Shown: one piece after another, positions 19,730-56,273 of the stretch
Layout of the letters: every line of letters begins with the position of its first letter
Position numbering within the stretch: position 1 is the stretch's first letter
NCBI GenBank assembly: GCA_964187785.1
Contig: OZ076409.1
Location: 49,354,001 to 49,418,000, forward strand
Direction of reading: 5' to 3'
DNA length: 64,000 nt
From: Amphiscolops sp. MND2022
Taxonomy: Eukaryota
Made by a program: the position numbers and the translations under genes
The notes under the pieces: model-generated
The model's database searches: none
Told to the model about the DNA's origin: nothing
Seen by the model: only the letters and a program-made list of their open reading frames with translations

Positions 19730-19770
19730 TGGTATTTGGTCGGTTAAAATTGAATTTACGGATAAAAGTA

Positions 19771-25800: not shown

Positions 25801-25879
25801 TCGTACTAAACCGACTAACCTCCACACCAAAATGTGGTAGATACACATTGAGCTCTCTCGTCTGACGAAAAAATAAAGA

Positions 25880-26561: not shown

Positions 26562-26751
26562 TGTTGAAGACTACTGAGAGGCAATGTACAAGAAGTAAAG
26601 AAGAGGAGATAACAATGTATTATGAACTGTATCTCGAAGTAAGGGCAACAGCAACTAAACATAGTGTTTTGCATTTCATTCTAGCATTTTCATGACAGGT
26701 GTTTGTAAATAATATCTTTAGCGTAACTGTTCTTTTTAGTACTCTGTCACA
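26562..26751 (-). repeat. 3' LTR of element 2
   Basis: Direct repeat of 31677-31866. Confidence 0.95.
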
Positions 26752-26910
26752 CTCCCCGTTTTAACATAACACTTGGGGTTTTTCGTTACATGTTAATAAA
26801 TGACATCAACGGTTAATGTTATTTTATTTCAGATTGCATGACTGTAAAGTAATGTAATATTGTGATAAAGTCAAGTGTGATGAATGTAATGTTTCTTCTG
26901 TTTCAGAGTT

Positions 26911-31677: not shown

Positions 31678-31866
31678 GTTGAAGACTACTGAGAGGCAAT
31701 GTACAAGAAGTAAAGAAGAGGAGATAACAATGTATTATGAACTGTATCTCGAAGTAAGGGCAACAGCAACTAAACATAGTGTTTTGCATTTCATTCTAGC
31801 ATTTTCATGACAGGTGTTTGTAAATAATATCTTTAGCGTAACTGTTCTTTTTAGTACTCTGTCACA
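31677..31866 (-). repeat. 5' LTR of element 2
   Basis: Direct repeat of 26562-26751; abuts the PBS. Confidence 0.95.
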
Positions 31867-31994: not shown

Positions 31995-32422
31995 CTTAGA
32001 TCTTTTTCGGGACTGAGACTTTTTTTCGAATATTTTTTGATTGCACCAAAGAGTCCCACTTCATTTTTATGATATTTTGCAACAGAATTGAATGTCAATA
32101 AATCCCAAAGGGTCCCCCCTTTCAAATTTTTGGCACTATGAGACTATTCAAAATGATCATTTTTTGATTTTTTTTCCGAAAATTTTTTAAATGTCTCATT
32201 GTTTTTTTTCAAGACAGGCGGTTTCTCCATGTAACTTTTTTCAAATTTGCTTGTATCAAGGCCCCCTCAACTGTGACACTGTTCAAAAATCTCATTCAAA
32301 TTTTTTTTTCGAAATTTTTTTTACAGTCTCCAAAGGTTCCCTTCAATTTTTTCGCAACCAACGTCCCACTTTTACAATTTTGAGCCTTAGATATAGCGCT
32401 GACTTTGACCGTTCCCGGCTTT
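31995..32422 (+). mobile_element. Degenerate HINE-like repeat, opposite orientation to 6846-7302
   Basis: tttgagccttagatatagcgctgactttgaccgttcccggctt is the reverse complement of the family end; the internal units (ttttggcactatgagac, aaagggtcccccc) also match. Confidence 0.55.
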
Positions 32423-32855
32423 TTTATTGGTCACGTGACTACACCTCAAGTTCCACCACAAGATGGCACAATACTAAGCACATGTACGTTAAGTGATTGT
32501 ATAATTGATGTTGAACAAAATATAACACTCTATAATTATGAGTCATTTTAATGAGATGAGTGCCCGTGATGAAATTTGTACAGATTGGGTAACAACAACT
32601 TAGTCGTAGAGGCATTGACCTTGCTGTTTGTTGCGTCTTGTATTTTCTACCCTGTTTTATCTGGGTTCGTGTTGTGAAATGTTTTCACTCTTTTGACTCG
32701 CTTTTGTTTGTTAGCATCGTTTGGTTCAAAACAACATATAACATACTTCAGTACTCAGGTGAATGGGAATTATATAAATGTCGTAGGTTGCTTACAATCA
32801 TAGATCTGATTATGCGGCTTCATATTGCTTTTATATAAGTATACATGAGATAAAA

Positions 32856-33609
32856 ACAAGCTGGGAACGGCCCAAGTCGGCGCCCCGCTCAAGGGGCAAA
32901 TGTGTACCTGGGGACGTGGTTTAGTATCACCTGTTGAAAAAACATCTTTTGAAAATCCATTAATGTCTTATAGTACTGAAAATCTGACCATAAAGCTTTA
33001 CATTGGACACAAATTATGTGAAATTTCGGGGAAAAACGGGGAAAAAAAGAAATAAAAACGTTATATCCGAACTTTGAAAACGTAACGTCCGAACATTGAA
33101 AACGTTTCATCCGAATTTAAGTACGTGTTAGATGGTATATGAGAAACATTTTACTTAGCTTTTTTTACAGCTTTGGAAAATTCTCCAAGAAACGTTGTAT
33201 CCGGTATACAATATATCCGGAATTCGTTATATCCGGTTTGCGTAAAATCGGGTATGGGTTGTGTCGTTTTATCCGATAAACGTAATATCGGGTATTCGTT
33301 CTATCCGGTTTGCGTTAAATCGGGTTTCCGCCCTTTGTAACATTGAAAATTCTCTTCAAAAAAACGTTACATCTGGTGTACGTAATATCCGGAATTCGTT
33401 ATATCCAGTTTGCGTTAAATCCGGTATGGAATGTGTTATTTATTGTTGAAAGGGACTCTTTAGCACTTATCAGAGCTTTGAAAAATTCTCAAGAAACGTT
33501 ATATCCGGTATACGTTACAGCTTATAAAGCTTGTAAAACTTGTCACTTTGTCGGTCTTTAAAAAGCCACTACTATAGTTGCCTCTTTCTACAAAAGCGCC
33601 GATTAAAAA
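32856..33609 (-). mobile_element. HINE-like element with a different interior (atccgg-rich short repeats)
   Basis: Ends acaagctgggaacggcccaagtcggcgccc and aaaagcgccgattaaaaa match the family termini; interior repeats at ~33190-33515. Confidence 0.5.
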
Positions 33610-34294: not shown

Positions 34295-36621
34295 TGTCAC
34301 AGCCCGCTCCCGGTCTGGCTTGTGGTTGCAGACGGCTGAAGATTGGGAGAGGACACGGAGGTAATCTGAGATTCCCCAAATCTTATTTTAACTGGTAACT
34401 CTAAAACTTTATCCTTGAAATAAACTGTGACTAGAAATGCGAAAGCACAACTAAACTGCGCAAATTTCAACTGGAAATGAAAACAGAGAACAAAATGAAC
34501 CAAAATGATTTCACGCATTTCCGGCAAGACGCGTTTGTCACGTCAAAATAGCAACATTCGCCACCTGGAAACTAAATTGAATTACATTCTAAAACAAAGA
34601 AAGCATGGTCTAATCTAAATGAAAACGTAGTCAAAATCATCTTCCAAAAGAACATTAATCAGATCTAAAATAGAAAATACACCGAGATGACACACCGATT
34701 TGGTTTAAGCCCTTTTCTTAGAAAGGCAGCTTAATTACTCTTTGAACAGCAATTAAAATGATTTAGGACGTCAATACTGCGCTGAGTAAACAAAGCGGCA
34801 AAAGAAATAAGAATACATGTATATTTGTCGTCAGTAGGACGCAGACAAGTTTGAAGGCATACCAATTGACGTCACTGCCTCGCATACGCGTACCAGCAAA
34901 TCATTCCAATTATCCGCCTATACTAATAACATTGCTAGGAATCATTCCAATTTACCGCCACTGTGACGTCACTGCGCCGGCAGCTAGCGAGAGATTCATT
35001 TCTGAAATACTCGTCAGCATTGCGTCAAACTAGTCAAAATCTCTACTCTGCCAAGAAAACTCGTCAACATGACGTTGACAAGTTTATGAAATTGAATAAA
35101 GTGAATGAATTTGCTGAATTTAGTCAAGTTTTCATCGCGCAAATGCCGTTATTTCCTAAGGAGAGAAAATTGCAGACTGTTGCAAAGTGTATAACGAAAG
35201 CATTGTTGATTTTCCATGGTTTAAGGTCCCAATTTAGAATGCGTTTTGGCACATATAGGATAATTTCAACCCCACGTTAAGTAACAATCATGTATTCTTA
35301 ACGATAAAGGAATTTCCGCGCATAAACCATCTTATTACAAGATCTCACAGTAGATTAATTAGGAAGTCACAGTTTATTCTCTCCAACTAAAAGCATATTG
35401 TGTACCAGAAATGTATTTCTCATATATTTTGCATTTTTGTACTCTACAACATTGAACGCTGTACTTCTGATTGTGATCATGTTTTTCCATTATAGTACCT
35501 CCGTTGCTGTCCAGGTATTTACCTTGTGTTAGTGCTGTTATTTAACAAACGTTGTTGTTAATTTTGTAAATCTTGTCGTGTTTGACACGACATGACAAAG
35601 TTGCTAACAAAGTATTATTTTCATATCATGATTTCATTCCCATCTCTAGCAAAAGATTGAGTCCAAATTCATAAAATATCGTCCTAGCATCGTTCAAATA
35701 TTCCTATTTTGGAATTAGTCATATCATTTTTATCAAAGCGAAATTCAAAATCAGGTATTTGTTGTTCACGTCAGCGTCATCTCAGCGTCATCTTCCCGCA
35801 AACCAAAGCAGTAAAACAGGGAAGCATTTCCGGTTTGACAGACTGAAGTAATATCTACTTCCTGCTTGGGAGGAAGCAAAAGGACGCCGGGATGAAATGA
35901 TATGATCATGTTTGATGACTAATACTAGTTTAAAATTGTCGTGTCTTAAAAATCGACGAAATGTCAGCGCAAATTTGGGAACTTTGTGATTTTTTCATCG
36001 ATAAAACAGGAAATGACTAATTGTTCGAAGGAAATTAGGGATTATGGTCGTGATCAAATGATGCTGGGAGGGTATAAATGTGATAGGATTTGATGATTAA
36101 GGGACTCAGTCTTTTGCAATTGTACAATTCAGTTGAATTTTCAATTTCACTCTCGCCTTTTTCTACTTTGTCAGAAAAATCTTTGAAAGAAATTCAATTC
36201 TTCAAGATCAAACTTTTCTACAAAATGTCAACAACAAGAAGCCAAAAAAGAAGGAACGATCAGCAAAGCACCAGTGAGAACGTAAGTGAAGGCTTGATTT
36301 CACCCATAGTAGTAGGAAATCCTTGTTCTTTGAATCAGGACGATGAAGTAGCGGGGCCTTCTAGACCAAAATCCCCCCGGATTGAGAATAGTCTCTTTGA
36401 AAGCTTGAGAACTTCCTTAAAGGAGGAAATAACGTCAGAGATTAAGAATCTTGTTATTGAATCCCAGAAGGAGATGTTGAAACTCCTTAAACCTGAAACA
36501 AGAGGGATTATTAGAGAAAATACCGAGGAAGAGGTAGAGGAGGAAACTAGAAGTTTCTATACTCCTACAAAATCAGTGAGAATAAGTTCTACTCAAAACG
36601 ATCCGATAGCATGTCGTAACA
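34295..36621 (+). repeat. 5' LTR of element 3 (2,327 bp)
   Basis: tgtcacagcccg...tgtcgtaaca; roughly 99% identical to 48034-50360 by eye. Confidence 0.95.
36073..36111 (+). promoter_or_regulatory. Putative LTR core promoter (TATAAA plus Inr-like TCAGTC)
   Basis: TATAAA at 36073 and TCAGTC at 36106, upstream of the gag ATG at 36225. The sister LTR retains a TATATA and gggactcagtcttt. Confidence 0.5.
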
Positions 36622-37664
36622 TGGTGACAGGAGTCCTAACCGATTCCACAAACCAGCCAAAAAGAACAAAGGCCAGGTCTCAGAGCCAACCGCCGTCAAA
36701 AGAACGTCCAGTAGTGGCAAGGACTTTATTTGCAACAGATAAAAATGATAGCACTACTCTGCCCATGCCAAAAGCACTCACGGCGTCACTCCCAACCTTC
36801 GATGGGAAGTCGGAAAATTTCGAGCTTTTCGAAGACCTTTTTCGCAATAATATCAAAATGTATCCACACCTTACGGAAATCCAAAAACTAAACTATTTCC
36901 ACTCCCTGCTCAGAGGAGATGCTTTACAAGCATTTTGTAATATCGAAGATACGAAAAAGGATTCCCTTGATGAGATCATGACGATTTTCAAACGACGTTT
37001 CGGAGATTATTTGTACATGGCCAAGGGAAGATGCGAATGGGATGAGCTCAAACTCGACCCCTCGAACCAGAAACTCCACGAATTTCTGGATGTACTTCAA
37101 AAAACCGCCAAAGAAGCCTTCGGCTCTGAAGCCCAACAATTTATTGATAAGGCGATCTATGCAAAAATGCCAGACCATGTAAAGAAAATAATAAATAGAG
37201 CGTACCTTGAAGACAAACCCTACAACGACATCGTACTGCATCTAGAAAGGGAAATGAGACTTAACGGCCTCGGGGCGCCAGATGAAGTAAACCTGGTACC
37301 ACTTAACAAAGTAGAACCGGCCCCACCAAACACTGAGTCCAAACAGGCCGACAACACGACGCAAAACACCAAGAAAGGGTATTGCTTCTACTGCAACAAA
37401 TTCGGACACTACAAAGCGGAGTGTAGGAAAATGAAAAGAGATAAATGGATGCAAACCAAGAGAAACAATGGCCAAACCAGCAGCAGTTCAGGCAAACCAC
37501 TTAAATGCGACACGTGCGGAAAACCCCACAAAACAGAAAATTGTTGGAATGGAGCCAATGCTGCCAACGATCCGCGTCCCAAGCGCCGCACTACACAGGA
37601 ACAAAAAAGGGACACCCCAGACCAGATGACAACAACCGACTTTGCCACCGAACCAAAAAACTAA
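36225..37664 (+). CDS. gag: Gag of element 3, starting inside the LTR
   Basis: aaaATG at 36225 (the same start is used in the sister ORF 53139..53558); LPTFDGK capsid-like region; knuckles CFYCNKFGHYKAEC and CDTCGKPHKTENC. An alternative in-frame ATG lies at 36621. Confidence 0.85.
   Translation: MSTTRSQKRRNDQQSTSENVSEGLISPIVVGNPCSLNQDDEVAGPSRPKSPRIENSLFESLRTSLKEEITSEIKNLVIESQKEMLKLLKPETRGIIRENTEEEVEEETRSFYTPTKSVRISSTQNDPIACRNMVTGVLTDSTNQPKRTKARSQSQPPSKERPVVARTLFATDKNDSTTLPMPKALTASLPTFDGKSENFELFEDLFRNNIKMYPHLTEIQKLNYFHSLLRGDALQAFCNIEDTKKDSLDEIMTIFKRRFGDYLYMAKGRCEWDELKLDPSNQKLHEFLDVLQKTAKEAFGSEAQQFIDKAIYAKMPDHVKKIINRAYLEDKPYNDIVLHLEREMRLNGLGAPDEVNLVPLNKVEPAPPNTESKQADNTTQNTKKGYCFYCNKFGHYKAECRKMKRDKWMQTKRNNGQTSSSSGKPLKCDTCGKPHKTENCWNGANAANDPRPKRRTTQEQKRDTPDQMTTTDFATEPKN
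36622..36636 (+). other. Primer-binding site of element 3 (TGGTGACAGGAGT; tRNA-Leu-like)
   Basis: TGG directly after the LTR terminal CA. The tRNA identity is inferred. Confidence 0.7.
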
Positions 37665-37712
37665 TTACGCCGAGCCTGCGTTTTGGGGAGAAAGTAGACG
37701 CGAGGGCGTATT
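37655..37712 (+). promoter_or_regulatory. -1 programmed ribosomal frameshift signal (A AAA AAC plus downstream stem-loop)
   Basis: Slippery heptamer at 37655-37661, in gag phase just before the gag stop; pol is in the -1 frame. TACGCC (37666) can pair with GGCGTA (37705), with an inner tgcgttt/agacgcg stem. Confidence 0.8.
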
Positions 37713-40700
37713 CAACCGAGGATCCCCCCACCACATACGTTAACAACACAACGATTGAATGCAATGACACACCAACTGAAGACTGGCTAAGACGACAAGC
37801 ACTCGCTTCTATAAAAAGGCCATATCCACAAACTGAACAAGCAGAAACCTACACTCACGATAAAGACTACAGGGACAATCCTAAACAACAAGCAAATCGT
37901 CCTACCAACTTACCCCTCATCAACAGAGAACTCTCCGCTACAAACCAGGTAGAACAAAATGAAAGCGCCTCCGACGACCGCCTATCGTCAAAACAAAATG
38001 AAGGAGATAATCACGACTCCACCAAGACTTTTCTGTCCCCAGACGATTTCCCCACATCACTCAACTCAATCAAGGAGTACGTAGCCGAAAAGGATGGAGA
38101 AACATATATACCTCTCCACTCCACTATATTCCTCAAGAGCAGAAGGAGAATGCTGTACTTGCCACTAGAATTCGGTGAAATAACAATGGATGGACTTGTC
38201 GACTCAGGTGCGTTCATCAATGCCATGTCCTGGTCAGACTACAACGCAATCAAAATGAATAGTGATAGTTGTGTCATAAAAGAATATCCTCAACCTCCCT
38301 TCAAAATCGAATGCGCAAACGCACAACTAGAGCAACCAATAGCAACAGCGGACATCCAGTTCAACATCGGAACATATACCTTCACGGATACCTTCGTCAT
38401 CCTATCGAAAACGTCATTTCCCATCATAGGATTGAACTTCATGAGAAATCACCAAGCAGTAATTGACACTGCCAACGGGACCAATAATTTCCCACACGTC
38501 GAAATGACGCTAGCCATGACGGACGAGACGAAAAAATGCAACCCGAAACCGCTCCAAATAATGGCAGAAGGAAATCAAACCCTACCGCCCCAACAAACAA
38601 CAACAGTGAACGCAATAGTAATAACCACAAACATGCATGACGTCACTGGTGCGGTACAACCATTACCACAATTTGATGAAGCAGCAACAATCATTGTTGC
38701 ACCAGCACTAGCGACAGCCCACAACAAAAGGCTCAACATCCGAATCGCCAACTTAACGGATTTCCCTCATACAATAAAGAATCACACAAAACTGGCAGAA
38801 CTACAAATCCTCAAACCCGAGGACACGAAACAAATACGACCAGTAGACGCCGCTGCACTCAAATTGCTAGAAGATCCTGATGACACCCACATGTACATCA
38901 ATGAACTCATGAAAGCCAAAAAAACTGAACAAGGTGAGGAAAATTTCTGGTTTCCCACACCTGAGAACCCGGGAAACGAAGAAGAACATACGCCAATCCA
39001 ACGACGGATCCTGAAGGAAATCCGTGAACTAATCCAGAGAGAAGAGTTAGACCCAACCAAAGACCAGGATTCAAGACAAAAGTTCCTTGACATGTTTCAG
39101 TGGGAAGGTTCTCAAATCGAAGGCAACGACAGAAAGCAACTCGAGCAAACAATAGTCGAATACAACGATATCTTTGCCCGCCATCGCCTTGATATTGGAA
39201 TCAACAATAGCTTCAAAGTCAAATTAACTCCGAAAGACGAGCGCCCAATTTACACGCAAAGCCTGCCGGTACCAATCAACCTGAAAGAAGATCTAACAGT
39301 TGAATAAGCACTAACGCATAGGTACGGCATAATAACGACCCTACCATTCTCAAAATATGCAAGCCCAATCTTCGCACAACGCAAACCGAATGGCAACTTG
39401 CGACTACTCGTCGATCTACGAAAAATAAACGCATTAATCTCAGACGACTACATCAACAATAACCACCCAGTCAGCACCCTGTCAGATGCAGCTCAACATC
39501 TAGCTGGGAAAAAATTGTTTTGCAAACTAGACTGCTCACAGGCATATCATTGCCTACAGATGGCAGACCAACGATCAATCGAAATGCTAGCCTTCAACTT
39601 TGCAAGCAGAACGTTCGCCTACAAACGCCTAGCACAAGGACTGAGCAGAGCCCTGTCGGCATTTTCAAGCTTCATGCGAGAATACTTGGATAAAGTAATC
39701 AAGGCCGACCAATGCGCGCAGTACGTGGACGACATCGGAATTGCGGCCAACTCTGTGACACAACTGATACGCAACATTCGAGCAGTTTTTGAATGCATCC
39801 GAAGAGCGGGACTCAAGCTAACCATCGAAAAATGCCATGCCATTTCGGGGTAACTGAAGTCGAATTCCTTGGAAGAACGATCACACCACAAGGAATCGCC
39901 CCGCAGGATCATAAAATTCAAAAATTCCTAGCAAATGTGAGATTTCCAAAATCCAAGAAACAAGTACAAAGATACATCGGTTTTGTCAATTATTATCGCA
40001 ACTACATCCCGAGACTGTCTGAGAAATTGCTCGGATTCTATGAACTACTGAAAGCAGACAAGCAAATCAAAATCACAGAAGAACTACTCGACCATTACAA
40101 AGCCATGAACGCAGCACTGGCGCAAGCTTGCGGTTTGGCACTCAAACAACCAATCACAGGACGACAGTACGTCCTGATGACGGACGCCAGCTTCCGAGCC
40201 TCTGGCTACGCACTAATGATTGAGGAAGACAACGACAAAAAACTCAATTCAAAAAAGAAGACATTTGCACCAGTCGCATTCGGATCAAAGGTGTTTTCCC
40301 CGGCTCAAATCAAAATGTCAATTTACTGCAAGGAATTTCTAGCAATCTATCACGCCTTCCTTGAATACAGCCATATTCTATGGGAAACAACCCTACCAAC
40401 TCTTGTGATGACCGACAACAGATCGGTAACGCGTTTCTTCCAAACAAAAGCAATCCCGCCTACTCTGTGGAATGCATGTGATTATGTACTACAATTCAAC
40501 TTCCACATAATGCACGTCGCGGGTACGCAAAACACGGCAGCCGATTTTCTGTCAAGAATTGATCTCAATCCCAAAGAAAGAGTTGAACTAAAAATCAGAG
40601 AGGATATTACAATCAGGCCCATCCAAGTGAATCTCCAATCAACGGACGTCGCGGATGAGGAACAACTTTTCTTCCTTCCGGATGAAACAATTGAAACGGA

Positions 40701-42597
40701 AGAAGAAATCCTATTGCAGAAAGAACAAACTAGACAAAATGCGCGCGACGAGGAGACGACCAAAATCAAAATAGCCATCAAAGAAACCACCCCAATCCCA
40801 ATAAATAAGGCATCTTATACCTTTGGGGCAATAAAGGAAGACGCACGTATTAGAGTCGAGCAAGACTCGAATTTGGTTTTCAAAGCAATCAAAAAGAAAT
40901 TGATATGTGAAGAATACGACAAACACCTTCTACAGACCGATCCGACAGCCAAGCGCCTCCTACTCCACGAGAACAGACTAATAGTGAAAGATGGAGTACT
41001 AATGCGCAAATATTACGAGGAATGTGGCCAAGTCACTCACCATCAAATTTTAATCCCCGAACATTTAATCACAGAACTCTTGAAAGCAATTCATGGACAA
41101 ATGGGAAAGCATCCAGGAATCACAAAAATGATCCAAGAATGCCGATCAAAGTACTACTACCCAGGATTAGCAAAGAAGATCAGACAGTGGGTAATGCAAT
41201 GCGAAGAATGCATCAGATACAAACGAATCAACAACAGCCAAATCCGACCAAAGATGATCAACAATACGGAACACGTCCTAGGTCCAGACGATATCCTAGA
41301 AATTGACATATTGCCGAACTTACCAAACTCCGCGGGATATCAAAACATCGTCACGATGATTGATGTCTTTTCACGTTACCTATTTGCATATCCAACGCAG
41401 AATAGCACAGCAAAAACAATAGGACGATGTATTGTCGACGTCATGACAAGACACGCATACTTGCCAACATTAACCTTATCAGACAAAGGCTCACAATTCC
41501 GATCAGAAATCGTCGCAGAGATAACCCAGATACTTGAAATTCAAATCAGCCACGCATCTACGAAGCATGCACAAACAATCGGAATTCTGGAAAGAACGCA
41601 CGCTTCAATCAAAACCGCCCTAAAAACGGGCGAACGACGCTCAATGTGGCACAAATATGTCCAAATCGCAGTGATGAATTACAATACAACATACCATGAA
41701 ACTCTGGGCTGCGAACCATCTACAGTATTTCACGGACGTATACCTTACAACGTTCTCGATTTAAAACTGGGCATCAAGCCAAAGTGGAAAACCACCCCCC
41801 ATTCGGATGTAGCAGAACAACTCCAAAAACAAATTGACGAAGTGCGAGCGACGGCAAAGGACAACATCATGCTGTCCTATCTCAAATACAAAAAATACTA
41901 CGACCGCAAAGCAACCGGGGCTCCATTAAAAATCAACGACTACTGCTATATACTTAACCCGAAAGCCGACAATCAGTCGACAAAGTTTGCGTTTCAAGAT
42001 TGCATCTGGACAGGACCGTATGTAGTAATCAAAGTGCTTTCAAACAACAACTACACAATACGAAAAATTGGCACAAGATATACACAAACACTACACAGAA
42101 TTCGCATACGACCTTACGTGCCAGAACAACGCTTGCCCGACGTCACAGTACGAGCCAACGACTACCTTCCTGACCCAGAAGTTACAGTCTCACACAATGA
42201 ATGGTATGCGGTATCATGGGAAATGGATTTTGGAAAGCAGATTGATGAACACGAAACATCGGAAAGCACAAGAAACAATCACCACGTAGAAATACGAGAA
42301 GTGACAAATGCAAACGACGGCAACACAACGCCACAAGCGTCAAATGATAACAGCGAAGATACAAATGACGAGGCACCGCCGTCCCCGGATTTTTCAAATC
42401 TTACTACGGACGTGGGAGATAACCCATACATACGCCGTCCCCCACCCCTTGAAAGCCCACCCATTCCCCCAAGAACACCGCCTACAGTTGTCGGATATAA
42501 CCCGAGACAAACAGCAAAGTACAATTTGAGACCTAATCCTAAGCCTAATGCTAATCCTGACTTCAGACGACTTGACGCTATGACTACGACTCACTAA
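37655..42597 (+). pseudogene. pol: Pol of element 3 (PR, dUTPase-like linker, RT, RNase H, IN) with two lesions
   Basis: LVDSGA protease, YVDD, TDAS, HHCC, DDE and GPY motifs. In-frame TAA at 39305-39307 and a 5-nt duplication (tgcca) at ~39833-39842 that shifts the frame. Confidence 0.92.
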
Positions 42598-42818
42598 AAG
42601 AAAAGATCATATCTGGAGTCCAGCCCGAACCGGACTGACAATTTTCCAATTTACAAGCATACTACAGCCTGAATAAACGTCTTTTTTTTCTTTTTTATAT
42701 ACAACTCCTACAGTCTACAATTTCATGTGGCACATCATAAAGCTACAAAGAAAATAAACAAAAGATATCAACACAACAACAACTAATGAAATCCGAGTTT
42801 ACTGCAACAAAACTGAAG

Positions 42819-45800
42819 TCATTTCTTCTTCGAGCCAGACGTAGCTCCTTTACCCGCAGATTGCTTTGACTTCTTCTTAGACTTCTTCACATCGACTACA
42901 TCAGGATCAACAGCACCTTTTTCACGTCCCAACAAAGAGGCAACACTCCCATACACCTTGGTCTTGCTGAATCGAAAGGAACTGGATCCACTAGACGAAG
43001 GGACAGGTGGGGCAGAAATAACAGACGCAGCTGGACTTTCAATCAAGGAGGAACCTTCGCAATCACCACCACTCTCGCCATAGGGTTGACCATCACTGAG
43101 ACTCCTTTTCCGACTCACTCGTTCATCAAACAGACGACGATATCGATTGACGAAAGCAGATTGATTCACCCCACATAAACCGTCCCATGGATCAAACCCA
43201 CCAGACGACATAAAAGTACTGGCAGTAGCAATTGCTTTCCGCACTTCATTCATCGTAAACTGGGTAAAGAAGGACTTCAACCTAAACTCAGATGACACAA
43301 CGCAACTTTGAACACCTTGCACACAGGATGCAACCACGTGAGACGGAACAGCACAATCGCTGAGATCAATCTCCACAGCAGGAAAATCAATGCGAGGCCT
43401 CAATACTGCCAGACAACATAGTTTGAACACGCTACACAATGACTTGCGCGCCAGAAAGCAATAGTCGGACAAAAGATAATGCCTTACGTCACTGATTGAC
43501 TCAGCACTGACTCCACTATTGGCATGCCGAGACCGGGCATCCACAACCAAGTTTGAATACTCCTCCACGGCTGCTTTCGACTCTCGCGAAGAGACAACTC
43601 CACTCCGCTCCAATACTCGAATCAATGTCTGGAACAATACTAGCATATGTTGATCGTCCCCTTCGAGTAACAATTCAGGACAGAAACAGTAAACGCCCTG
43701 AGGAAGCTCTCCAGTAACGGGCTGCTGACCCAAAATGGCGATAACTAGGCGATCAATAAATTTAGGACAAAGATCCTGGAAGACGCGAAACTCTCCTCCT
43801 TTGTGACTACGCAACACAGCACCAAAATCATGGTTATGAAGGAAATCACAGGAAGCAACATTTTCGAATCCGTCCAATTTCTGTAGGTCCATGTAACCCT
43901 CCCACGAATTCAGACTCGGCAACGACCCAAGTTTACGACTTCGTGACAGAAGACAGTACACAAATTGGCAAATTTCCATGTAACCATGGAAACCATAATC
44001 ACTTCGCCCTGAAGACTGCTTCTTGAACGAACAGGAATCTGAAACACAAGACACACCATCATACTCGGCACTAGCCATTTTTTCCTCACCCCCACACAGT
44101 ACTACGCAAGAACATCACACAAATACCACTATCTCGCGAACTGCAAATACGATACACCACAACAGCATACTCACGAAGTTCAAGCACATGCAGAAAAAGA
44201 CCCAGGTGCAACCCTCCAGTAGCCTCAGAGTACACATGCCAGTCAGTGCAACGCATCTACAACAACAAATCGCCAACAGTCAACAACACCTATACCTGTG
44301 CGAACAACAATATACGAAACGATCAGCTACGCAAACAAGACAAAATCATTACCCGGCCAGCAGCAGTTTTGAAATGTCGGGGTCCAGTGTGTCTCACAAA
44401 ATCCTGAACAGACGACCACACTGAGATCAAGTCAGCAACTACACCTCGTAGATCAGCGAATTTGACATGCCCAGCAATGATGCATCGTCGGAGACACAAC
44501 GTACTCTCGCACCAGGGCTCTTGAATTGCACCCCGCAAGCGCAGCATCAAAAAGTCCACCATGGCAGTTGTTTCCAGTCCACCAAAAACCTCCTGATGCG
44601 CGAGCTGATAGCAATGCAAGAAGACGTCCACAGTGAATTCCCGATACATCAGAAACTCTCGCCCGTCAACGCGATTGTCACTTAGAATCCTCAGCAAGGT
44701 AGGACTACAGCCCTGACATGACAAAGGCATCTGGCATGACGCAGTGCTATCAATGACACGTGACAAACCAGCCAAGTCAGCCTCGGGAATGCGTTGCCCA
44801 GAAGCCTCAACCCTCACACAAATGCTCATCAGGGTATGCTCATCAAAGGTCTGCACGAAACACTTGTGGTACCCATCGCTCTCCATGAAAGAAACACTGT
44901 ACTCTCGGAAAGCGCCAATTCGAGCGAACAAGGAGCGCAACACACGAGGGAACAAAGCCTGGCAGATCAGCGACTAAAACACAAAAAATTTTTTTCCAAC
45001 ACATGAGGCCCGATACAAAGATGAGCCTGCGCACTCTACATACAACCCCCCCCCTCACGAATAACAAATACTAAACTGCCGGACATTTTGACTTACTAAC
45101 CAACGACTCAGGACGACTCCAGTGCACATTGTATAGTGGGTTCTCGGGACCCAGTGTCGCCCGGAAACACCCCCACAATCTTCGCAACAGAAGGTAACTG
45201 CCACCAAACCGCAACAGCTCGATCAGACAGTTCACCATTGACATCAGGGGCACACTGGAATCGGCTTGCACACAGGCAGGGAGCAAGTCCTCAGGAAAAC
45301 TAAACCCCTCATTTTTCCCTTTGTTAGGTCGATTGCGATATTCCTCCAGCTGAGCGTCACTGAGCACCATTGGGTCCATCAGACGATTAAATACCGGCAG
45401 ACCATTTTGAACACGATAGGTCACATCCAGCAACCAGTGCCGTTTTCCGAAGAAGTGACGACTGAACTCTGCTACCCCACGTGACTCCATGGACACGTCC
45501 CGCTGGCAAATCATGCAGTGAAACATCTTAGCAGAACCAGTGCTGGAACCACTGACAAAGAGCTCATATATCGGATTGCCAGTGACCATATCGCGACGAA
45601 GACGATTCCGAGGGCTGTACACTCGCTTACGACCACGATCGGCACTCTCCAAGGTCGTCTCCATACGGCTGATTAGCTCCTCAAACCCTGTAACAACCAA
45701 ACTCTGGCATCATGAAACTCAATTAGAAGACGTACGCCACCCGGAAGAGGAAAAAAAAGAAAAAAAGGAAAAAGAGAAAAACAGGGAAAAGAAGGAAAAA

Positions 45801-46944
45801 GATGCCTAACATCTATCAACAGACGAAAAGAATATCAAAATAACTCCACCAATCCAACTGAACTTACGTGCAACGAACGGATCCAAGGCATGTCCTTCTA
45901 CGTCGGAAAGTCCTCCAGACGACACCCCGACTTGCTGTGCGGGTGTAAGAGGCAGCACACCACTAATGCCCTGCTCATCGTCACTGTCGTCCACACGGAA
46001 CCGAATTATGGGAGCGCCAAACTGGAAAACAGTCTCAGCAGGCTGTTCTGACGCTGATCGCATCTCTGACCCGCTCCCGTCGGGAATCATCAATTGCACT
46101 ACAACAAGTTAGTTACAGTTAAGACATAATACCTCCTCACATAACAAAGCGACAAGAGAAGGACATAACCTCAGAAACACGCCAATGGCAATTGACCTAC
46201 ATGAGAATACACAAATATCATATAAATATCAAAGCAACAATACGACAACTCACCACGTTTGACTTTGGTCCCTCCGTCGCCAGAACTTCCTTCTGTTCTC
46301 TTTCGACGAAGAAACGATGAGAATCGAGGAGAAACAGTTTTCTGCCCTTCAGCATTTCTCTGAGCAGGGGGGGATAACCCCTCACCTCCGCGAGAGTCCA
46401 TCTTGTCGACCGCGTTGGCCACCTTAGCAAGAGCCGCCAGAGGAACGTCTGAATCTTCAGAACAACACGTAGGAATGACCGAAGCAGCGGGAGGAGAAAC
46501 CTCAGTCACTATCTCACCACCCCCATGTGTTGACTCTGCGAGAGGCTCGAGACTAATTCCAGAGAGGTCACCAGGGAGAGAAGCCCTCAACTCAGCGACA
46601 GAACCACCAGCCAGAGGAGGTGAAGGAGTCGGATCTAGCAACAAACAAAACAATCCCGTGTTGACGCGTCAGAAAATCTAAGCTGTGAAAATACCATAAA
46701 CCAGAAGAGGCCTATCTGTCACAAGTGTTATTCACAAAAGCTTAATGGACCGGGGAAGAATAAGCTCACCTGTTGCTTGCCGACGAATGACATCCCCATC
46801 ACGCTGGTAGATGTCCCCCTCAGAGAAAACAAACTGAGTTTCATTACCACTCTGAGCTCCGGTATCACGCTGAAGGGAAGGAGGATTCTGATCCAAAAAA
46901 AAACAGCTGGGATCTGAAAAAACAGCCGAAATTGACGTCGGCAT
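42819..46944 (-). CDS. Spliced antisense accessory gene of element 3, ~1,098 aa: BED-like zinc finger plus hAT-transposase-like body and Lys-rich tail
   Basis: Predicted exons 46944-46770, 46634-46254, 46098-45868, 45687-45101, 44973-44353, 44256-44175 and 44038-42819. All six introns are GT-AG and join into one stop-free 3,297-nt frame. The same junctions and phases occur in the sister copy. The start codon is uncertain. Confidence 0.8.
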
Positions 46945-47190
46945 AACGTCGACAAAAAGGTTACCTGGGTTAAGAAATTAATCCGATACCCTAAAATGGC
47001 GTCATAAAAACGGTGACAAAATCAAAAGTTAGCTAAGCTAGCGAAATTGACGTCGGCATAACGTCGACAAAAAGGTTATCTGGGTTAAGAAATTAATCCG
47101 ATATCCTAAAATGACGTCATCAAAACGGTGACAAAATCAAAAGTTAGCTAAAGCTAACGAAAATGACGTCAGCATAACGTTGACAAACTT
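46927..47190. repeat. ~115-bp tandem repeat (x2.3) rich in GACGTC/CRE-like sites
   Basis: Units start at 46927, 47042 and 47158 (cgaaattgacgtcggcataacgtcgacaaa...). Confidence 0.85.
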
Positions 47191-47414
47191 GGCTAAACGG
47201 ATTAATTCAATTTGCAGCCAATAGAAAACGACGTTGGCACTGCGTCAACACCTAAAGATTAAAAAGGATTAAAACGATCGATTAACCAATCAGAATGGAG
47301 GGATTTTATCCCAATATTCTCCTTAATCCTAATTAATCCCAAATTCATTGTGGAACAATCAAAGGAGAAATTCAGCAACCCTACAACTCACGACTCGACA
47401 ACGGCAGAGCAAAA
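46945..47414. promoter_or_regulatory. Putative internal bidirectional promoter
   Basis: Lies between two divergent ORFs; contains the tandem repeats and CCAAT boxes (agccaatag ~47216, aaccaatcag ~47285); strongly conserved in the sister at ~56274-56745. Confidence 0.5.
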
Positions 47415-48137
47415 ATGAACTCTCTCAAAAACGTATACGAGCTAATCGACATTTCGTCCAGCGAAGATGAAAGTGAACCTGTGGAGAGATCGTCGACCCC
47501 TCTTCACAGAGAGACGCTGCCTAACTATAGAGTAATACTAAAAAATTCCCTCTCCTCTGCAGAAGCCGTGGCTGATGAAGAAGAATATTTCGACGTGTCA
47601 GCAGACTCGCTTGAAGCAAGCTACAAAAGGATAAGACTGAATTCAAGTCTGTCCTCCATTGACTCTAGCTCCTACCCTCAACGAGAAGGGAATGCAGTAA
47701 CACAAGCAGGTGAAGAAATCCCGGACAGTCCTGAAAGCCCGGACGAAAGCATGTCGTCGGATGTGTTCATCGTGGAGGAAGCCATTGGCAACGAGCCATC
47801 ATTCTCGGGCAGCAAAGTCATGGAATACCTCGAAAAGGTACACCAAGAAGATTCATCATCATACTTTGTCACGCCACCAGGAACTCTCAGAAAGATAAAT
47901 TTCACTCACGCGAGCCCATTAAACGATCTCGAAGCGGAACGCAGCTTTAACGGCTCGGAAGAAACTGAGATGAGACCACCACCACTTACGTTTTTGCCAA
48001 GACAACCAGGTGTTTTCCCCAGAGGAGCGGCCCTGTCACAGCCCGCTCCCGGTCTGGCTTGTGGTTGCAGACGGCTGAAGATTGGGAGAGGACACGGAGG
48101 TAATCTGAGATTCCCCAAATCTTATTTTAACTGGTAA
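47415..48137 (+). CDS. 240-aa acidic, Ser-rich accessory protein with SUMO-interacting-motif-like N-terminus, overlapping the PPT and 3' LTR
   Basis: Intact in both copies (sister 55563..56273, 236 aa). The first 20 codons differ by 8 synonymous and 0 non-synonymous codons. Confidence 0.85.
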   Translation: MNSLKNVYELIDISSSEDESEPVERSSTPLHRETLPNYRVILKNSLSSAEAVADEEEYFDVSADSLEASYKRIRLNSSLSSIDSSSYPQREGNAVTQAGEEIPDSPESPDESMSSDVFIVEEAIGNEPSFSGSKVMEYLEKVHQEDSSSYFVTPPGTLRKINFTHASPLNDLEAERSFNGSEETEMRPPPLTFLPRQPGVFPRGAALSQPAPGLACGCRRLKIGRGHGGNLRFPKSYFNW

Positions 48138-50360
48138 CTCTAAAACTTTATCCTTGAAATAAACTGTGACTAGAAATGCGAAAGCACAACTAAACTGCGC
48201 AAATGTCAACTGGAAATGAAAACAGAGAACAAAATGAACCAAAATGATTTCACGCATTTCCGGCAAGACGCGTTTGTCACGTCAAAATAGCAACATTCGC
48301 CACCTGGAAACTAAATTGAATTACATTCTAAAACAAAGAAAGCATGGTCTAATCTAAATGAAAACGTAGTCAAAATCATCTTCCAAAAGAACATTAATCA
48401 GATCTAAAATAGAAAATACACCGAGATGACACACCGATTTGGTTTAAGCCCTTTTCTTAGAAAGGCAGCTTATATACTCTTTGAACAGCAATTAAAATGA
48501 TTTAGGACGTCAATACTGCGCTGAGTAAACAAAGCGGCAAAAGAAATAAGAATACATGTATATTTGTCGTCAGTAGGACGCAGACAAGTTTGAAGGCATA
48601 CCAATTGACGTCACTGCCTAGCATACGCGTACCAGCAAATCATTCCAATTATCCGCCTATACTAATAACATTGCTAGGAATCATTCCAATTTACCGCCAC
48701 TGTGACGTCACTGCGCCGGCAGCTAGCGAGAGATTCATTTCTAAAATACTCGTCAGCATTGCGTCAAACTAGTCAAAATCTCTACTCTGCCAAGAAAACT
48801 CGTCAACATGACGTTGACAAGTTTATGAAATTGAATAAAGTGAATGAATTTGCTGAATTTAGTCAAGTTTTCATCGCGCAAATGCCGTTATTTCCTAAGG
48901 AGAGAAAATTGCAGACTGTTGCAAATTGTATAACGAAAGCATTGTTGATTTTCCATGGTTTAAGGTCCCAATTTAGAATGCGTTTTGGCACATATAGGAT
49001 AATTTCAACCCCACGTTAAGTAACAATCATGTATTCTTAACGATAAAGGAATTTCCGCGCATAAACCATCTTATTACAAGATCTCACAGTAGATTAATTA
49101 GGAAGTCACAGTTTATTCTCTCCAGCTAAAAGCATATTGTGTACCAGAAATGTATTTCTCATATATTTTGCACTTTTGTACTCTACAACATTGAACGGTG
49201 TACTTGTGATTGTGATCATGTTTTTCCATATTAGTACCTCCGTTGCTGTCCAGTTATTTACGTTGTGTTGGTACTGTTATTTAACAAACGTTGTTGTTAA
49301 TTTTGTAAATCTTGTCGTGTTTGACACGACATGACAAAGTTGCTAACAAAGTATTATTTTCATATCATGATTTCATTCCCATCTCTGGCAAAAGATTGAG
49401 TCCAAATTCATAAAATATCGTCCTAGCATCGTTCAAATATTCCTATTTTGGAATTAGTCATAGCATTTTTATCAAAGCGAAATTCAAAATCAGGTATTTG
49501 TTGTTCACGTCAGCGTCATCTCAGCGTCAATTTCCCGCGAACCAAAGCAGTAAAACAGGGAAGCATTTCCGGTTTGACAGACTGAAGTAATATCTACTTC
49601 CTGCTTGGGAGGAAGCAAAAGGACGCCGGGATGAAATGATATGATCATGTTTGATGACTAATACTAGTTTAAAATTGTCGTGTCTTAAAAATCGACGAAA
49701 TGTCAGCGCAAATTTGGGAACTTCGTGATTTTTTCATCGATAAAACAGGAAATGACTAATTGTTCGAAGGAAATTAGGGATTATGGTCGTGATCAAATGA
49801 TGCTGGGAGGGTATAAATATGATAGGATTTGATGATTAAGGGACTCAGTCTTTTGCAATTGTACAATTCAGTTGAATTTTCAATTTCACTCTCGCCTTGT
49901 TCTACTTTGTCAGAAAAATCTTTGAAAGAAATTCAATTCTTCAAGATCAAACTTTTCTACAAAATGTCAACAACAAGAAGCCAAAAAAGAAGGAACGATC
50001 AGCAAAGCACCAGTGAGAACGTAAGTGAAGGCTTGATTTCACCCATAGTAGTAGGAAAACCTTGTTCTTTGAATCAGGACGATGAAGTAGCGGGGCCTTC
50101 TAGACCAAAATCCCCCCGGATTGAGAATAGTCTCTTTGAAAGCTTGAGAACTTCCTTAAAGGAGGAAATAACGTCAGAGATTAAGAATCTTCTTATTGAA
50201 TCCCAGAAGGAGATGTTGAAACTCCTTAAACCTGAAACAAGAGGGATTATTAGAGAAAATACCGAGGAAGAGGTAGAGGAGGAAACTAGAAGTTTCTATA
50301 CTCCTACAAAATCAGTGAGAATAAGTTCTACTCAAAACGATCCGATAGCATGTCGTAACA
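48034..50360 (+). repeat. 3' LTR of element 3
   Basis: Direct repeat of 34295-36621; preceded by an atypical PPT, AGAGGAGCGGCCC (48021-48033). Confidence 0.95.
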
Positions 50361-51950: not shown

Positions 51951-52051
51951 AACACACTTACCTACTTTCTTCTTATGTTTTTGCATTGCCTTAACTGAGA
52001 AACAATTGACACCGAAAACAGTCGAGAAGACAACCTTCGAGCAAACACAGA

Positions 52052-53005
52052 ACAAGACGAGAACGTCTAAAGTCGGCGCCATATCTAAGGCTCAAAAAGC
52101 GCAAAACAATTTTTTGGGAAAAAACTTGAAATTTTTGAACAATTTTTTTTTCAAAAAAAGTCGCCTAGTGCCGAAAAATGTACAAGGGGGACCCTTCTGG
52201 TTTTATTAACATACATTCCGTTGCAAAATATCAAAAACCTCGAAGGGGGACCATTTGGGGACATTAAAGTTTTCGAAAAAAAGTCGCACAGTGCCGAAAA
52301 AAATCCAAAGGAGGGACCCTTTAGGCACGTCCGGATTTGTGGGTTTCCTCTAAAAAGTAAATAAAAAGTAAAAAACCAAAGGCGGGACCCTTTGGAATAA
52401 CTTAGATGCGTTTCCGGGGTACTCGTTTAGTTTCCTTTAGTTGAAGAGTACTGAACGTTAACGTTCGTCGCTTCGAGTCTGTCTTAAATAAAAAAAAACG
52501 AGCGACTGTAATATTTATACAAGACGGGAACGTCTCAAGTCGGCGCTATATCTAAGGCTCAAAAAGCGCAAAACATTTTTTTTGGAATAAAACTTGAAAT
52601 TTTCGAAAAAAAAATTTCTTTCGGAAAATGTCGCACAGTGCCGAAAATGTAAAAGGGGGACCCTTTTTGATTTATAAACACGCATTCTGTAGCAAAATAA
52701 CAAAAAACTCAAAGGGGGAGCCTTTGGGGACATTAAAAAAATTTCGAAAAAAAGTCTCACAGTGCCGAAAAAAAGTCGAAAGGGGGGACCCTTTAGTCCC
52801 GTCCGGGCTTGTAGGTAACGTTTAAAAAGTAAATGAATGCGCTCCCCGTTTGCCTTTACCGGTCCAGTATTTTAGTACTGTATTTAGTAGTTGAACGTTA
52901 ATTTTAACGTTCGTCGCTTCGAGTCTGTCTTAAATAAAAGAAAAGAAAAACAACGAGTGACTGTAATAGTCGGGCTCTTTTCTTAAGAAAAGCGCCGACT
53001 AAAAA
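52052..53005 (-). mobile_element. Two head-to-tail HINE/DINE-1-like copies (52052-52511 and 52519-53005)
   Basis: Both begin acaagacg.gaacgtct.aagtcggcgc. The second ends with the palindrome agtcgggctctttt-cttaag-aaaagcgccgact followed by an A run. Confidence 0.7.
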
Positions 53006-53179: not shown

Positions 53180-55666
53180 TGTTACGACTAATGTTCGGGT
53201 CGTTTTGAGTTGAACTTATTCTCACTGATTTTGTAGGAGTATAAAAACTTCTAGTTTCCTCTTCTACCTCTTCCTCGGTATTCTCCCTAATATTTCCTCT
53301 TGTTTCAGGTTTTAGGAGTTTCAACATCTTCTTCTGAGATTCGACAAGAAAATTCTTGATTTCTGACGTTATTTCCTCTTTCAAGGAAGCCCTCAAACTT
53401 TCTAAGAGGCTGTTTTCAATCCGGGGGGATTTTGGTTTAGAAGGCCCCGCTACCTCATCGTCCTGGTTTAGAGAACAAGGATTTCCTACTACTTCACTTA
53501 CGTTCTCACTGGTGCTTTGCTGATTGTTCCTTCTTTTCTGGCTTCTTGTTGTTGACATTTTGTTGTAGAAAAGTCTGACCTTGAAGAATTGAATTTTTTT
53601 CAGAGATATTTACTAATAAGGTTAAACAAGGCGAGAGTTTAGTGAAATTGAAAATTCAACTGAATTGTTCAATTGCAAAAGACTGAGTCCCTCAGCCAAC
53701 TAAAATCATCGTATATATACCCTCCTAGCATCATTTGATCACGAGTTAAAATCCTAATTTCCTTCGAACATTTAGTCATTTCCTGTATTTTCAGTGCAAA
53801 AATCATTTTGTTCCCAATTTTGCGTCGACATTCCGTCAAATTTTGAGACACGGCAAATCTAATCTAGCATTAGTCATCAACCATAATCATATCATTTCAG
53901 CTCGGCGTCCTTTTGTTCCCTCCCAAGCAGGAAGTAGATATTACTTCAGTCTGTCAAACCGGAAATATTTCCTTGTTTTGCTGCTTTGGTTCGTAAGAAA
54001 CTGACGCTGAGATGACGCCGGCATGAACAACTAATGCCTGATTCTGAGATTTCGCTCGAGGAAAAAATGCTATGACTAATGTTTTCAGCTCTGCACTTTC
54101 CAACGATGCTAAGAAGAAATGAGAACAAGATTAAAGAATTAGCAACAATCTCAACTTAGTTTCAAATTGAATGATTAATGATTAACGAAATAAAACAACG
54201 ACACATTGACGCTTGATGAATTGATGGACCAAATTGTCTAATTCAGACTTCTGTCCTAATTTATTAATATTTCAATCACAAATACTGTCTAATATTTTTT
54301 TAGCGTCAATTTAATGATTATACATAACACGCTGTCAACAGATTTTAACTTGCACATATGATAGTAATTTTGAACATAAACGTCTGACGACGCGGGGACG
54401 GCACTTTATGGATTTGCTGAACAGGCAAAAGTTCAAAACCTTCTATCACTTGATCCCAATCATTACAAAATGTACAATAGCGACACAAAACATTTGTTCT
54501 GAATTTATGCACATTGGGGTTAAAATAATGACCGTCCTGATTAGGAAACGACGACGACACAACAAAGTTTTACCACACGCTTTATGTAGTACAAAATACA
54601 AACATATGAAAATATATTTCCAATACGAAAATACCATCGATTTACTTTCGTCATGCCCATAAACTGTGACTTTCACTTACATGATACAGGAAATTCCATT
54701 TCAAATTAAGTTTTAGAGCAAAATTAAACCGGCAAGGGAAATGTTTGACGGAAACGTGGCGTTGGTCCTCAAATCCTTCACTAATCGTCTTGTTAAATTA
54801 TCATATACCTTAAGCGTATTCCTAGTACTGATTAATTTGAATGGTATTCATCATATCTTTTTGGATGGATTAAAACAGCCTGCTTTGGTGGAATTTGGAC
54901 GTAACGTGGACGTACGTATTAGTACTAGGCCTGGTCCAGTATAGTGGACGTAACGTGGACGCAAATTTGAAGTGAGAATTAGCTGTCTGACAGCACCGTG
55001 ACGTCACAATGGCGGAAAATTGGAATGATTTCAGAGTAGTGTCACTAATATAGGCAGTAAATTGGAATGGTTCTCTAGTGAGCGCGGACGGAACGGTGAC
55101 GTCACACTATATACTTTCAAGTCTGCTTCTTACCGACGTCTAATGTACATGTATTCTTATTTTGTTTACTTAGCGCAGTGCCAACGTCCTAATCCGCACT
55201 AATTGCTGTTCAAAGTGCAATTAAACTGCCTTTCTTAGAAAAGGTGTAATTATTTCAGTGTGTCATCTCAATGTACTTTCTATTCTAGATTCAAATAATG
55301 TCCTTTTTCCAATGGCGATTTTGGGTATGTTTTCGTTTAGATCGGTCTATGGCCCTTATTTCACGACGTGTTTTAATTTAGTTTTCAGGTGGCGAATGTT
55401 CTTATTTTGGCGCACTAAAGACGTCCCACCGGAAATGTGTGAAATCATTTTAGTTCATTTTAGTTTCTGTTCTCATTTTCGTTTAAACTTTACGTAAGTT
55501 AGGCGTGCGTTTTCGTATTTCTAGTCACAGTTTATTTAAGATTAGGGTTTAAAGTTTTCAAGTTAGTAATTGAAATACCATTTGGGGAATCGCAGGCTGC
55601 AACCATGGCCTCTTCCGATCCCCACTTGTCTGCAATGACAATCCAGTCCGGGATCGGGCTGTGACA
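53180..55666 (-). repeat. 3' LTR of element 4 (2,487 bp)
   Basis: Minus-strand tgtcacagcccg...gtcgtaaca; PPT AGAGGAGTGGCCC at 55667-55679; contains the Gag N-terminal ORF 53139..53558. Confidence 0.9.
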
Positions 55667-56273
55667 GGGCCACTCCTCTGGAGAAAACACCTGGTTGTCT
55701 TGGCAAAAACATAAGTGGAGGAGGCCTCATCTCAGTATCTTCCGGGTCGTCAAAACTGCGTCTCACTTCGAGATCGTTTAGTGGGCCCCTCATCTTCCTG
55801 GGGGTTCCTAGTGGCGTGACGAAGTATGATGAGGAATCTTCTTGGTGCACCTTTTCAAGGTATTCCGCGACATTGCTGCTTGAGATTGATGCTTCGTTAC
55901 TGATGGCTTCTTCTGCGACGAACACATCCGACGACATGCTTTCGTCCGGGCTTTCAGGACTGTCTGGAATTTCTTCACTTGTTTGTGCTACGTCGTTCCC
56001 TTCGTGCTGTGGGTAAGAGTTAGAATCGATGGAAGACAGACTCGAATTCAGCTTTACCCTCTTGTAGCTTGCTTCAAGCGAGTCTGCTGACACATCAAAA
56101 TATTCTTCCTCATCAGCTACAGCTTCTGCAGAGGAGAGGGAATTTTTTAGTATTACTCTATAATTGAGTATCGCCTCTCTAGGAAGAGGGGTTGAAGATC
56201 TTTCCACAAAGTCACTTTCGTCTTCACTTGACGAAATGTCAATTAACTCATAGACATTTTTGAGAGAGTTCAT
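55563..56273 (-). CDS. 236-aa acidic SIM-like accessory protein of element 4
   Basis: Collinear homolog of 47415..48137; intact; crosses the PPT into the LTR. Confidence 0.85.
   Translation of the reverse strand: MNSLKNVYELIDISSSEDESDFVERSSTPLPREAILNYRVILKNSLSSAEAVADEEEYFDVSADSLEASYKRVKLNSSLSSIDSNSYPQHEGNDVAQTSEEIPDSPESPDESMSSDVFVAEEAISNEASISSSNVAEYLEKVHQEDSSSYFVTPLGTPRKMRGPLNDLEVRRSFDDPEDTEMRPPPLMFLPRQPGVFSRGVALSQPDPGLDCHCRQVGIGRGHGCSLRFPKWYFNY

Follow-up and report, generated by a model that had tools for sequence, protein, structure and literature searches.

How LTR retrotransposons reach very high copy number in animals with a Piwi-type defence is an open question, and acoel genomes are reported to be 53-70% repeats, mostly LTR elements (PMC9911081). 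The stretch of DNA analysed here (hereafter the window) comprises 64,000 nucleotides from Amphiscolops sp. MND2022 and contains a Gypsy element with an additional ORF, orfX, that reads into the 3′ LTR. A first-pass annotation had taken this ORF for a disordered SUMO-binding effector in the position of nef that could counter silencing. We therefore asked whether orfX is a real gene, what it encodes and what it might do for the element.

The element carrying orfX (copy 1) spans 16 kb (34295-50360) and is of the Ty3/Gypsy type, having paired LTRs, a target site duplication (TSD), a tRNA primer site and gag followed by pol. Its two LTRs are each 2327 bp, are 98.9% identical and have TG...CA ends, and the whole is flanked by a 5-bp TSD. 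The stretch from pol to the 3′ LTR is 5.4 kb long. The features are as follows:

34295..36621, plus strand: 5′ LTR of copy 1, 2327 bp, whose last 397 nt are the first 132 gag codons
36225..37664, plus strand: gag (DUF1759, zinc knuckle), starting inside the LTR
36622..36633, plus strand: primer binding site, complementary to the 3′ end of host tRNA-Leu(CAG), an assignment for which 1 of 4 fetched genome matches was called as tRNA-Leu
37505..42597, plus strand: pol (protease, RT, RNase H, integrase; Gypsy order)
42819..46896, minus strand: antisense gene, seven exons, 1082 codons without a stop
46896-46770, 46634-46254, 46098-45868 and 45687-45101, minus strand: antisense exons 1-4
44973-44353, 44256-44175 and 44038-42819, minus strand: antisense exons 5-7
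47095..47350, no strand assigned: conserved non-coding block between the antisense gene and orfX, a predicted internal two-way promoter
47415..48137, plus strand: orfX, ATG at 47415, stop at 48135-48137, 240 aa, last 34 codons in the 3′ LTR
48034..50360, plus strand: 3′ LTR of copy 1, with its own CRE (48606, 48703) and CCAAT sites
48158..48163, plus strand: candidate poly(A) signal AATAAA, 21 nt past the orfX stop
55563..56273, minus strand: orfX of copy 2, 236 aa, intact

The pol of copy 1 is broken by a stop (39305-39307) and a frameshift near 39840; orfX of the same copy is open. Copy 2 is a related element, with a 3′ LTR ending at 53180 and a 5′ part that extends beyond the window. The first-pass annotation had described an ORF intact in both copies, which holds, and one that crosses the polypurine tract (PPT) to end 104 nt into U3. 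The 104 nt within the LTR stand, whereas only a weak PPT is seen (a brief stretch of purines with GGCCC at its end, barely purine-rich in one subfamily) and the U3 label follows from position only. The AATAAA after the orfX stop is found in 45/57 copies and is mostly missing from a divergent subfamily. Abutting it, a 7-base inverted copy of the LTR 5′ end lies approximately 130-137 nt into the LTR in 74/94 segments (region 48021-48171, plus strand), and could form an RNA loop around the orfX tail or a repeated protein site. Folding at the LTR start gave no stable RNA structure above shuffles (z -1.18).

Several other observations concern the element and its surroundings. Gag codons 1-132 lie within the LTR (36225-36621 and 49964-50360, plus strand), and thus every 3′ LTR and solo LTR contains the gag N-terminal frame; this LTR-embedded start is also present in the most distant subfamily. 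The best-conserved LTR stretch (49459-49760, plus strand; 83-97% over 12 copies) is found ~200-500 nt before the gag ATG and is a candidate promoter, packaging or translation element. Elsewhere in the genome, several hundred tRNA-Leu-type 3′ halves stand in tandem at ~296-bp spacing from G000:C8:35589243 onward (767 matches genome-wide), a candidate tRNA gene array or tRNA-derived satellite. The window also holds two compact Gypsy-type elements without extra genes (14069-20027 and 26562-31866, both minus strand; LTRs of 239 and 190 bp, 99-100% identical), an inverted pair of 16-bp tandem arrays resembling the ends of non-autonomous DNA transposons (21070-21810) and further dispersed repeats (6835-7284, 25879-26117, 31996-32906 and 52042-52953).

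Is orfX a gene? The first 20 codons of the two window copies differ by 8 synonymous and no amino-acid changes, as first reported, and over the whole of orfX dS is 0.51 and dN 0.11, a ratio of 0.21. A protein search of the host genome returned 3379 first-look candidates, the best 150 of which were scored and all matched at 58-100%; queries from two other subfamilies had a similar outcome. Eighty loci were fetched and, together with copy 2, yielded 57 sequences past an intactness filter and 17 representatives below 93% DNA identity. This set was chosen by the ORF and is hence biased towards intact copies. When 30 copies were instead chosen by their upstream (promoter) DNA, 16 passed the strict filter and 14 failed, with one beyond the 16 keeping the full 240-codon frame; of the five closest copies four were intact, and the ORF is thus not disrupted in most young copies. 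The frame ends 104 nt inside the LTR in 15/17 representatives, the others being one that stops earlier and one mis-located by the search pattern.

Omega across the 17 representatives is 0.18 overall. By codon range it is 0.026 (codons 1-20, to be read as 'very low' only, synonymous sites being near saturation), 0.10 (21-80), 0.20 (81-102), 0.13 (103-175), 0.60 (176-206) and 0.14 (217-240, the LTR part). For the three hydrophobic-acidic patches described below, pooled pN/pS is 0.19, 0.18 and 0.18, compared with 0.59-0.76 in the linkers. In the ORF frame pN/pS is 0.41, against 1.1-1.4 in alternative frames and 0.49 in the antisense shadow frame, with which wobble positions are common. Third codon positions vary in 19/20 columns for codons 1-20 and 23/24 for codons 217-240, and low synonymous change is limited to codons 197-216, which hold the plus-strand priming site and the LTR end. 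Therefore, the LTR-encoded tail is selected as protein and constraint at the DNA level is found only at codons 197-216. Taken together, these data support orfX being a real protein under purifying selection.

This protein evolves far faster than RT. Relative to the most distant subfamily, identity is 93-94% for RT, 72% for integrase and 32% for orfX, with dN of 0.04 for RT and 0.69 for orfX. Moreover, synonymous distances are unequal between genes of one element pair, and the window orfX joins the N-terminal part of one subfamily type to the LTR tail of another, LTR and orfX tail swapping together, which points to module swapping by recombination among subfamilies. Some loci have lost modules altogether. 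A young non-autonomous copy, L122 (G000:C6:4098464-4106978; LTRs 99.6% identical), consists only of LTR-gag-orfX-LTR, lacking pol and the antisense gene yet retaining gag and an open orfX, and L134 has lost pol and keeps parts of the antisense gene and orfX. Closely spaced tandem units of orfX and LTR parts at L049 (G000:C6:29604809-29614704) and G000:C1777 are apparently rearranged or tandemly amplified copies.

The unit first annotated was sound for orfX and too small, overlooking an antisense gene that accompanies orfX and has the predicted promoter block in common with it. As modelled, this gene has six GT-AG introns of 96-180 nt, whose donor and acceptor sites recur in 17 other copies while the intron interiors diverge; exons 4, 5 and 7 are under purifying selection. 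Exon 4 (45687-45101) encodes a CxxC...H-x5-H zinc finger with finger residues invariant in 12/12, and in copy 1 an ATG is missing where the gene model begins. The order pol, antisense gene, orfX, LTR was found, at least in part, at 19 of 20 divergent loci (one of the 19 without pol; the twentieth, a tandem locus, with neither) and in 5/7 elements of another set, the other two being deletion forms that retain orfX. The cassette of orfX and antisense gene is kept in all subfamilies examined. No Pfam match was found for the antisense exons, including none to TRP28 (PF04195), and longer homologues of exon 4 amounted to 2 unnamed proteins among 8000 scored. An origin from a hAT transposase, suggested by the finger and the order of secondary structure, found no support in profile tests. 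A low-confidence model of exon 5 (pLDDT 47) gave weak Foldseek rows to Hermes (E 0.19-0.27) and a structural alignment of Z 4.4 (rmsd 2.8, 60 aligned), no fold search with it reached E <0.001 or Z >=5, and profile comparisons with host hAT proteins were at background.

Between the two genes, the DNA at 47100-47300 is 84-87% identical across 17 other copies as opposed to ~50-69% for the antisense exons, making it the best-conserved part of this region, above the neighbouring coding exons. It contains CRE sites (47112-47119 and 47164-47171) and CCAAT boxes (47218 and 47286) and no TATA box. The CCAAT is present in 17/17 copies, the CRE in 15/17 and an A at -3 of the orfX ATG in 17/17. In the distant subfamily, a proximal CCAAT near -110 is found at 7/10 loci and the exact CREs are mostly lost. 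Paired CRE and CCAAT sites occur alike in the internal block and the LTR, and the window contains 10 CRE matches, 8 of them in the internal or LTR blocks (1.06 expected). Splicing from the 5′ LTR into orfX was rejected because the 200 nt that precede the ATG contain no pyrimidine-rich acceptor. We predict from these motifs that orfX has its own promoter just upstream and that the block fires both ways. On the antisense side, a 115-bp tandem duplication of CRE-like promoter sequence (46927-47187) differs in unit number among copies.

What does orfX encode? The following motifs were located:

47433..47474, plus strand: SIM-type core LIDI with a Ser/acidic tail and CK2-type sites, residues 7-20
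47574..47600, plus strand: acidic-aromatic patch (EEEYFDVS), residues 54-62
47625..47639, plus strand: basic NLS-like motif, residues 71-75, in 30/31 aligned members
47754..47777, plus strand: reverse-orientation SIM-type patch, residues 114-121, V120 and E121 invariant in 31/31
47868..47903, plus strand: TPPG phosphodegron-like and RVxF-like motifs, residues 152-163
48034..48137, plus strand: LTR-encoded basic C-terminus with CxC...GRGHG(C), selected as protein

The composition is acidic and Ser-rich (Ser 14.9%, Glu 11.2%) and the three hydrophobic-acidic motifs lie at residues 7-20, 55-62 and 114-122, in agreement with the original description. Residues 1-175 include 35 acidic residues and residues 207-240 none, and many SP/TP sites are conserved. 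Disorder is predicted: AlphaFold gave pLDDT 52 and pTM 0.13 with one helix, and 8/8 members lie slightly to the disordered side of the charge-hydropathy boundary. The absence of Env features also held, the best 19-residue Kyte-Doolittle mean being 0.63 (<=0.98 in 8/8 members) with no signal-like or TM stretch. Identity with Env or an errantivirus ORF3 was accordingly rejected for want of a signal peptide, TM anchor or Pfam match. A SUMO-targeted ubiquitin ligase was likewise rejected, the protein having no RING and its C-terminus 2-3 Cys and 1 His with no fold and no Pfam match.

The consensus SUMO-interacting motif (SIM) of proteins such as PIAS1 and PML is a hydrophobic core with a Ser/acidic tail. 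Using consensus patterns, we counted motifs over 31 aligned orfX members. The SIM-type pattern LIDISSS occurs in 26/31, the strict reverse SIM-type pattern in 12/31, an LC3-interacting-type pattern in 24/31, RVxF in 19/31, TPPxT in 11/31 and STP in 30/31 (the last matched in 43% of shuffles). A single SIM-type match is expected in ~6% of shuffles of orfX composition, and thus the case for a SIM rests on conservation and not on the match itself. That N-terminal motif is under the strongest constraint in orfX. In the divergent subfamily (32% identical) the N-terminus reads E(V/I)IE(L/V)IDLVSP, LIDI becoming LIDL or VIDL. The four-residue hydrophobic core persists in 14/14 rows that reach the N-terminus (14/20 loci) with Asp third in 10/14; one open member has Lys at the third core position, and the acidic tail after the core is weaker. 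The aromatic residue before the core is absent there, for which reason an LC3-interacting reading of the first motif was rejected. TP-GPL and SLNDL blocks are still present at this distance. Among 151 database proteins covering the N-region after filtering, 99 have the core, and 94 of these 99 have a CK2-type site within 10 residues, the CK2 evidence being a pattern only. The acidic-aromatic patch would fit a second SIM, an LC3-interacting motif or a TFIIH-binding type equally well.

Judged by its sequence, orfX has the makings of a phospho-SIM, namely a hydrophobic core with acidic flank, adjoining CK2-type serines and a disordered setting, and it probably binds SUMO. A complex prediction of host-type SUMO with residues 1-36, with a score of 0.17 and no control runs, was counted neither for nor against binding; a host PIAS SIM sought for comparison was not recovered, and the window orfX has no SUMO acceptor site by consensus pattern.

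Pfam returned no match for orfX (four single weak hits from the 31 members), PDB sequence searches with profiles of orfX and of antisense exons 5 and 7 found none below E 0.9, and no similarity to solved structures was seen, with no DNA-binding domain, RNA-binding fold or long Arg-rich tract. A profile search of 1.84 billion representative proteins gave 125 hits; nine of the ten looked up were unnamed ENA proteins and the tenth, a bacterial repeat protein, was treated as a false hit. Pfam, PDB and these representatives thus yielded no homologue beyond the family. Since mobile-element genes are usually masked in annotated genomes, the lack of hits does not show absence from other acoels.

The host has a SUMO gene, whose nearest named relatives are from two acoel species (83% and 80%) and mark the host as an acoel-type worm, as well as two SP-RING matches and Piwi-domain genes, for which the match does not separate Piwi from other Argonautes. 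SUMO is reported to recruit SIM-bearing SetDB1/Wde in piRNA silencing (10.1101/533091), a link known from flies and worms and not from acoels. Against this background our leading reading, held tentatively and at somewhat less than an even chance, is that orfX is a selected Gypsy accessory gene whose disordered product is likely nuclear, likely SUMO-binding and would thereby blunt SUMO-dependent silencing. The frame with its selection and position is shown, as are the antisense gene and the conservation of the promoter-like block; from these we infer the following steps. The CRE/CCAAT block would fire in both directions to give a short orfX mRNA in sense and a spliced mRNA in antisense; the introns of the latter would persist because they run in reverse in the genomic RNA and so escape splicing. 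The basic motif would bring the orfX protein into the nucleus, where CK2-type phosphorylation of the Ser tail may switch on SUMO binding, the second and third patches adding avidity. On SUMOylated chromatin factors orfX could then compete with SIM-bearing silencing enzymes, so that the element stays transcribed. The antisense zinc-finger protein may give sequence specificity, and the SP/TP sites with the TPPG degron-like motif might restrict orfX lifetime. The fuller version of this, a two-part anti-silencing system in which the zinc finger finds element DNA and an orfX phospho-SIM decoy strips or blocks SUMO silencing, both expressed from one two-way promoter, is unlikely as a whole.

Sequence data alone do not tie orfX to silencing over transcription, RNA export or integration, and countering silencing is the leading use while being possible rather than probable. 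The strongest competitor, though rather unlikely, is that orfX is an acidic activation module in a Tas/Tax-like feed-forward loop, expressed from the internal promoter and acting with the antisense zinc finger or CREB-type factors at the CREs to turn the LTR on, the SIM only tuning it. The CRE and CCAAT pairs common to the internal block and LTR fit this, as do the abundant acidic residues before position 175 and an acidic-aromatic patch resembling TFIIH-binding motifs. Foamy viruses are described as using an internal promoter and Tas in this way (PMC3798896). However, orfX has no DNA-binding domain, the exact CREs are gone in the divergent subfamily, some young copies have orfX without the antisense gene, and the best-kept motif is the SIM-type one.

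Distinctly unlikely is a life-cycle cofactor, either in phospho-regulated RNA export (CERV/Rev-like) or as an integration tether to SUMO-rich chromatin, with the basic LTR-encoded tail binding RNA or integrase. CERV of Cer1 is reported to be a phosphorylated nuclear accessory protein required for export (PMC10309623). The many conserved SP/TP sites of orfX, its basic C-terminus with GRGHG, selected as protein, and the joint exchange of LTR and orfX tail among subfamilies also speak for this role; the want of an RNA-binding fold, a long Arg-rich tract or any likeness to solved structures argues against it. We consider it quite improbable that orfX is an E1A-like motif hub that, as a degron decoy or through PP1 docking or a Polo-box site, would shift stem or germ cells to a cell-cycle or stress state favouring retrotransposition, with SUMO binding as one handle among several. 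The TPPxT, RVxF and STP counts and the TP-GPL and SLNDL blocks retained at 32% identity speak for such a hub, but all are short, their conservation is less uniform than that of the SIM-type core, and STP is frequent in shuffles. Lastly, a by-product of cis-acting DNA or RNA constraint, or a decayed env remnant, is very improbable and largely refuted, as the low synonymous change in codons 197-216 and a short inverted LTR-end repeat located 130 nt inside the LTR are outweighed by freely varying third positions, unconstrained other frames, the lack of a TM or signal segment and folding no better than shuffles.

Lentiviral nef and MMTV sag overlap the start of the 3′ LTR, and orfX resembles them in being the last ORF and in this overlap. 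The proposed likeness to nef goes no further than position: orfX lacks an N-terminal myristoylation motif (position 2 of the aligned start is not Gly), a folded core and a TM, its promoter is predicted to be its own with no spliced leader, and its motifs are nuclear and not of the membrane; identity with Nef was rejected. Foamy virus tas/bel2 (PMC3798896) offer a parallel to the predicted internal promoter before 3′ accessory genes, the predicted short subgenomic RNA and the two candidates, one for regulation and one for counter-defence, whereas here there is no env and no sequence similarity, the promoter appears two-way, and orfX is predicted to be disordered without a DNA-binding domain. 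Elements with additional ORFs in the interval from pol to the 3′ LTR are known in plants (PMC7264820, PMC11963269), rotifers (PMC5408684) and planarians (PMC6431247), and by sequence comparison orfX is homologous to none of these ORFs. The plant Retand/Grande Gypsy elements have a pol-to-3′LTR region of 2.9-6.6 kb with a conserved antisense gene, which in Grande is reported to have its own promoter and a nuclear product (PMC11963269; PMC7264820). The long region and antisense gene are common to both; here the host is an animal, the antisense gene has six introns and no TRP28 domain, and a second, sense gene runs into the LTR from the same promoter block.

CERV, described as nuclear and phospho-regulated (PMC10309623), and the bdelloid ORF3s (PMC5408684) are, like orfX, non-Env accessory proteins of animal LTR retrotransposons, but they come from spliced sense RNAs or are captured enzymes, and orfX has neither a domain match nor an acceptor site. 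Planarian Burro elements are Gypsy elements of a stem-cell-rich worm with ubiquitin/SUMO-related extras, including a SUMO-like domain (PMC6431247); those extras are folded domains in a polyprotein, whereas orfX is a separate, motif-only protein. The phospho-SIMs of PIAS1 and PML, in which a hydrophobic core is followed by Ser and acidic residues (PMC11409511), have in common with orfX the core and Ser/acidic tail in a disordered chain. Unlike them, orfX is a stand-alone mobile-element protein without ligase or RING, its SIM being known from sequence. We found no account that combines an additional ORF of an LTR retrotransposon with a SUMO-interacting motif, nor a description of this Gypsy family or of its predicted two-way promoter, six-intron antisense gene and LTR-completed sense protein, in a literature search that covered few subscription papers.

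Whatever its function, orfX belongs to an unusual architecture, with an antisense gene of six introns, a predicted promoter that beats the adjacent exons in conservation, an ORF C-terminus supplied by the LTR and a gag start within the LTR. Found throughout the family, under selection and made up of motifs only, orfX with its predicted SUMO handle offers a small candidate that can be tested directly. Should the two-part system prove real, an animal retrotransposon would thereby directly counter the SUMO arm of piRNA silencing, which might help to account for the LTR-dominated genomes of acoels.
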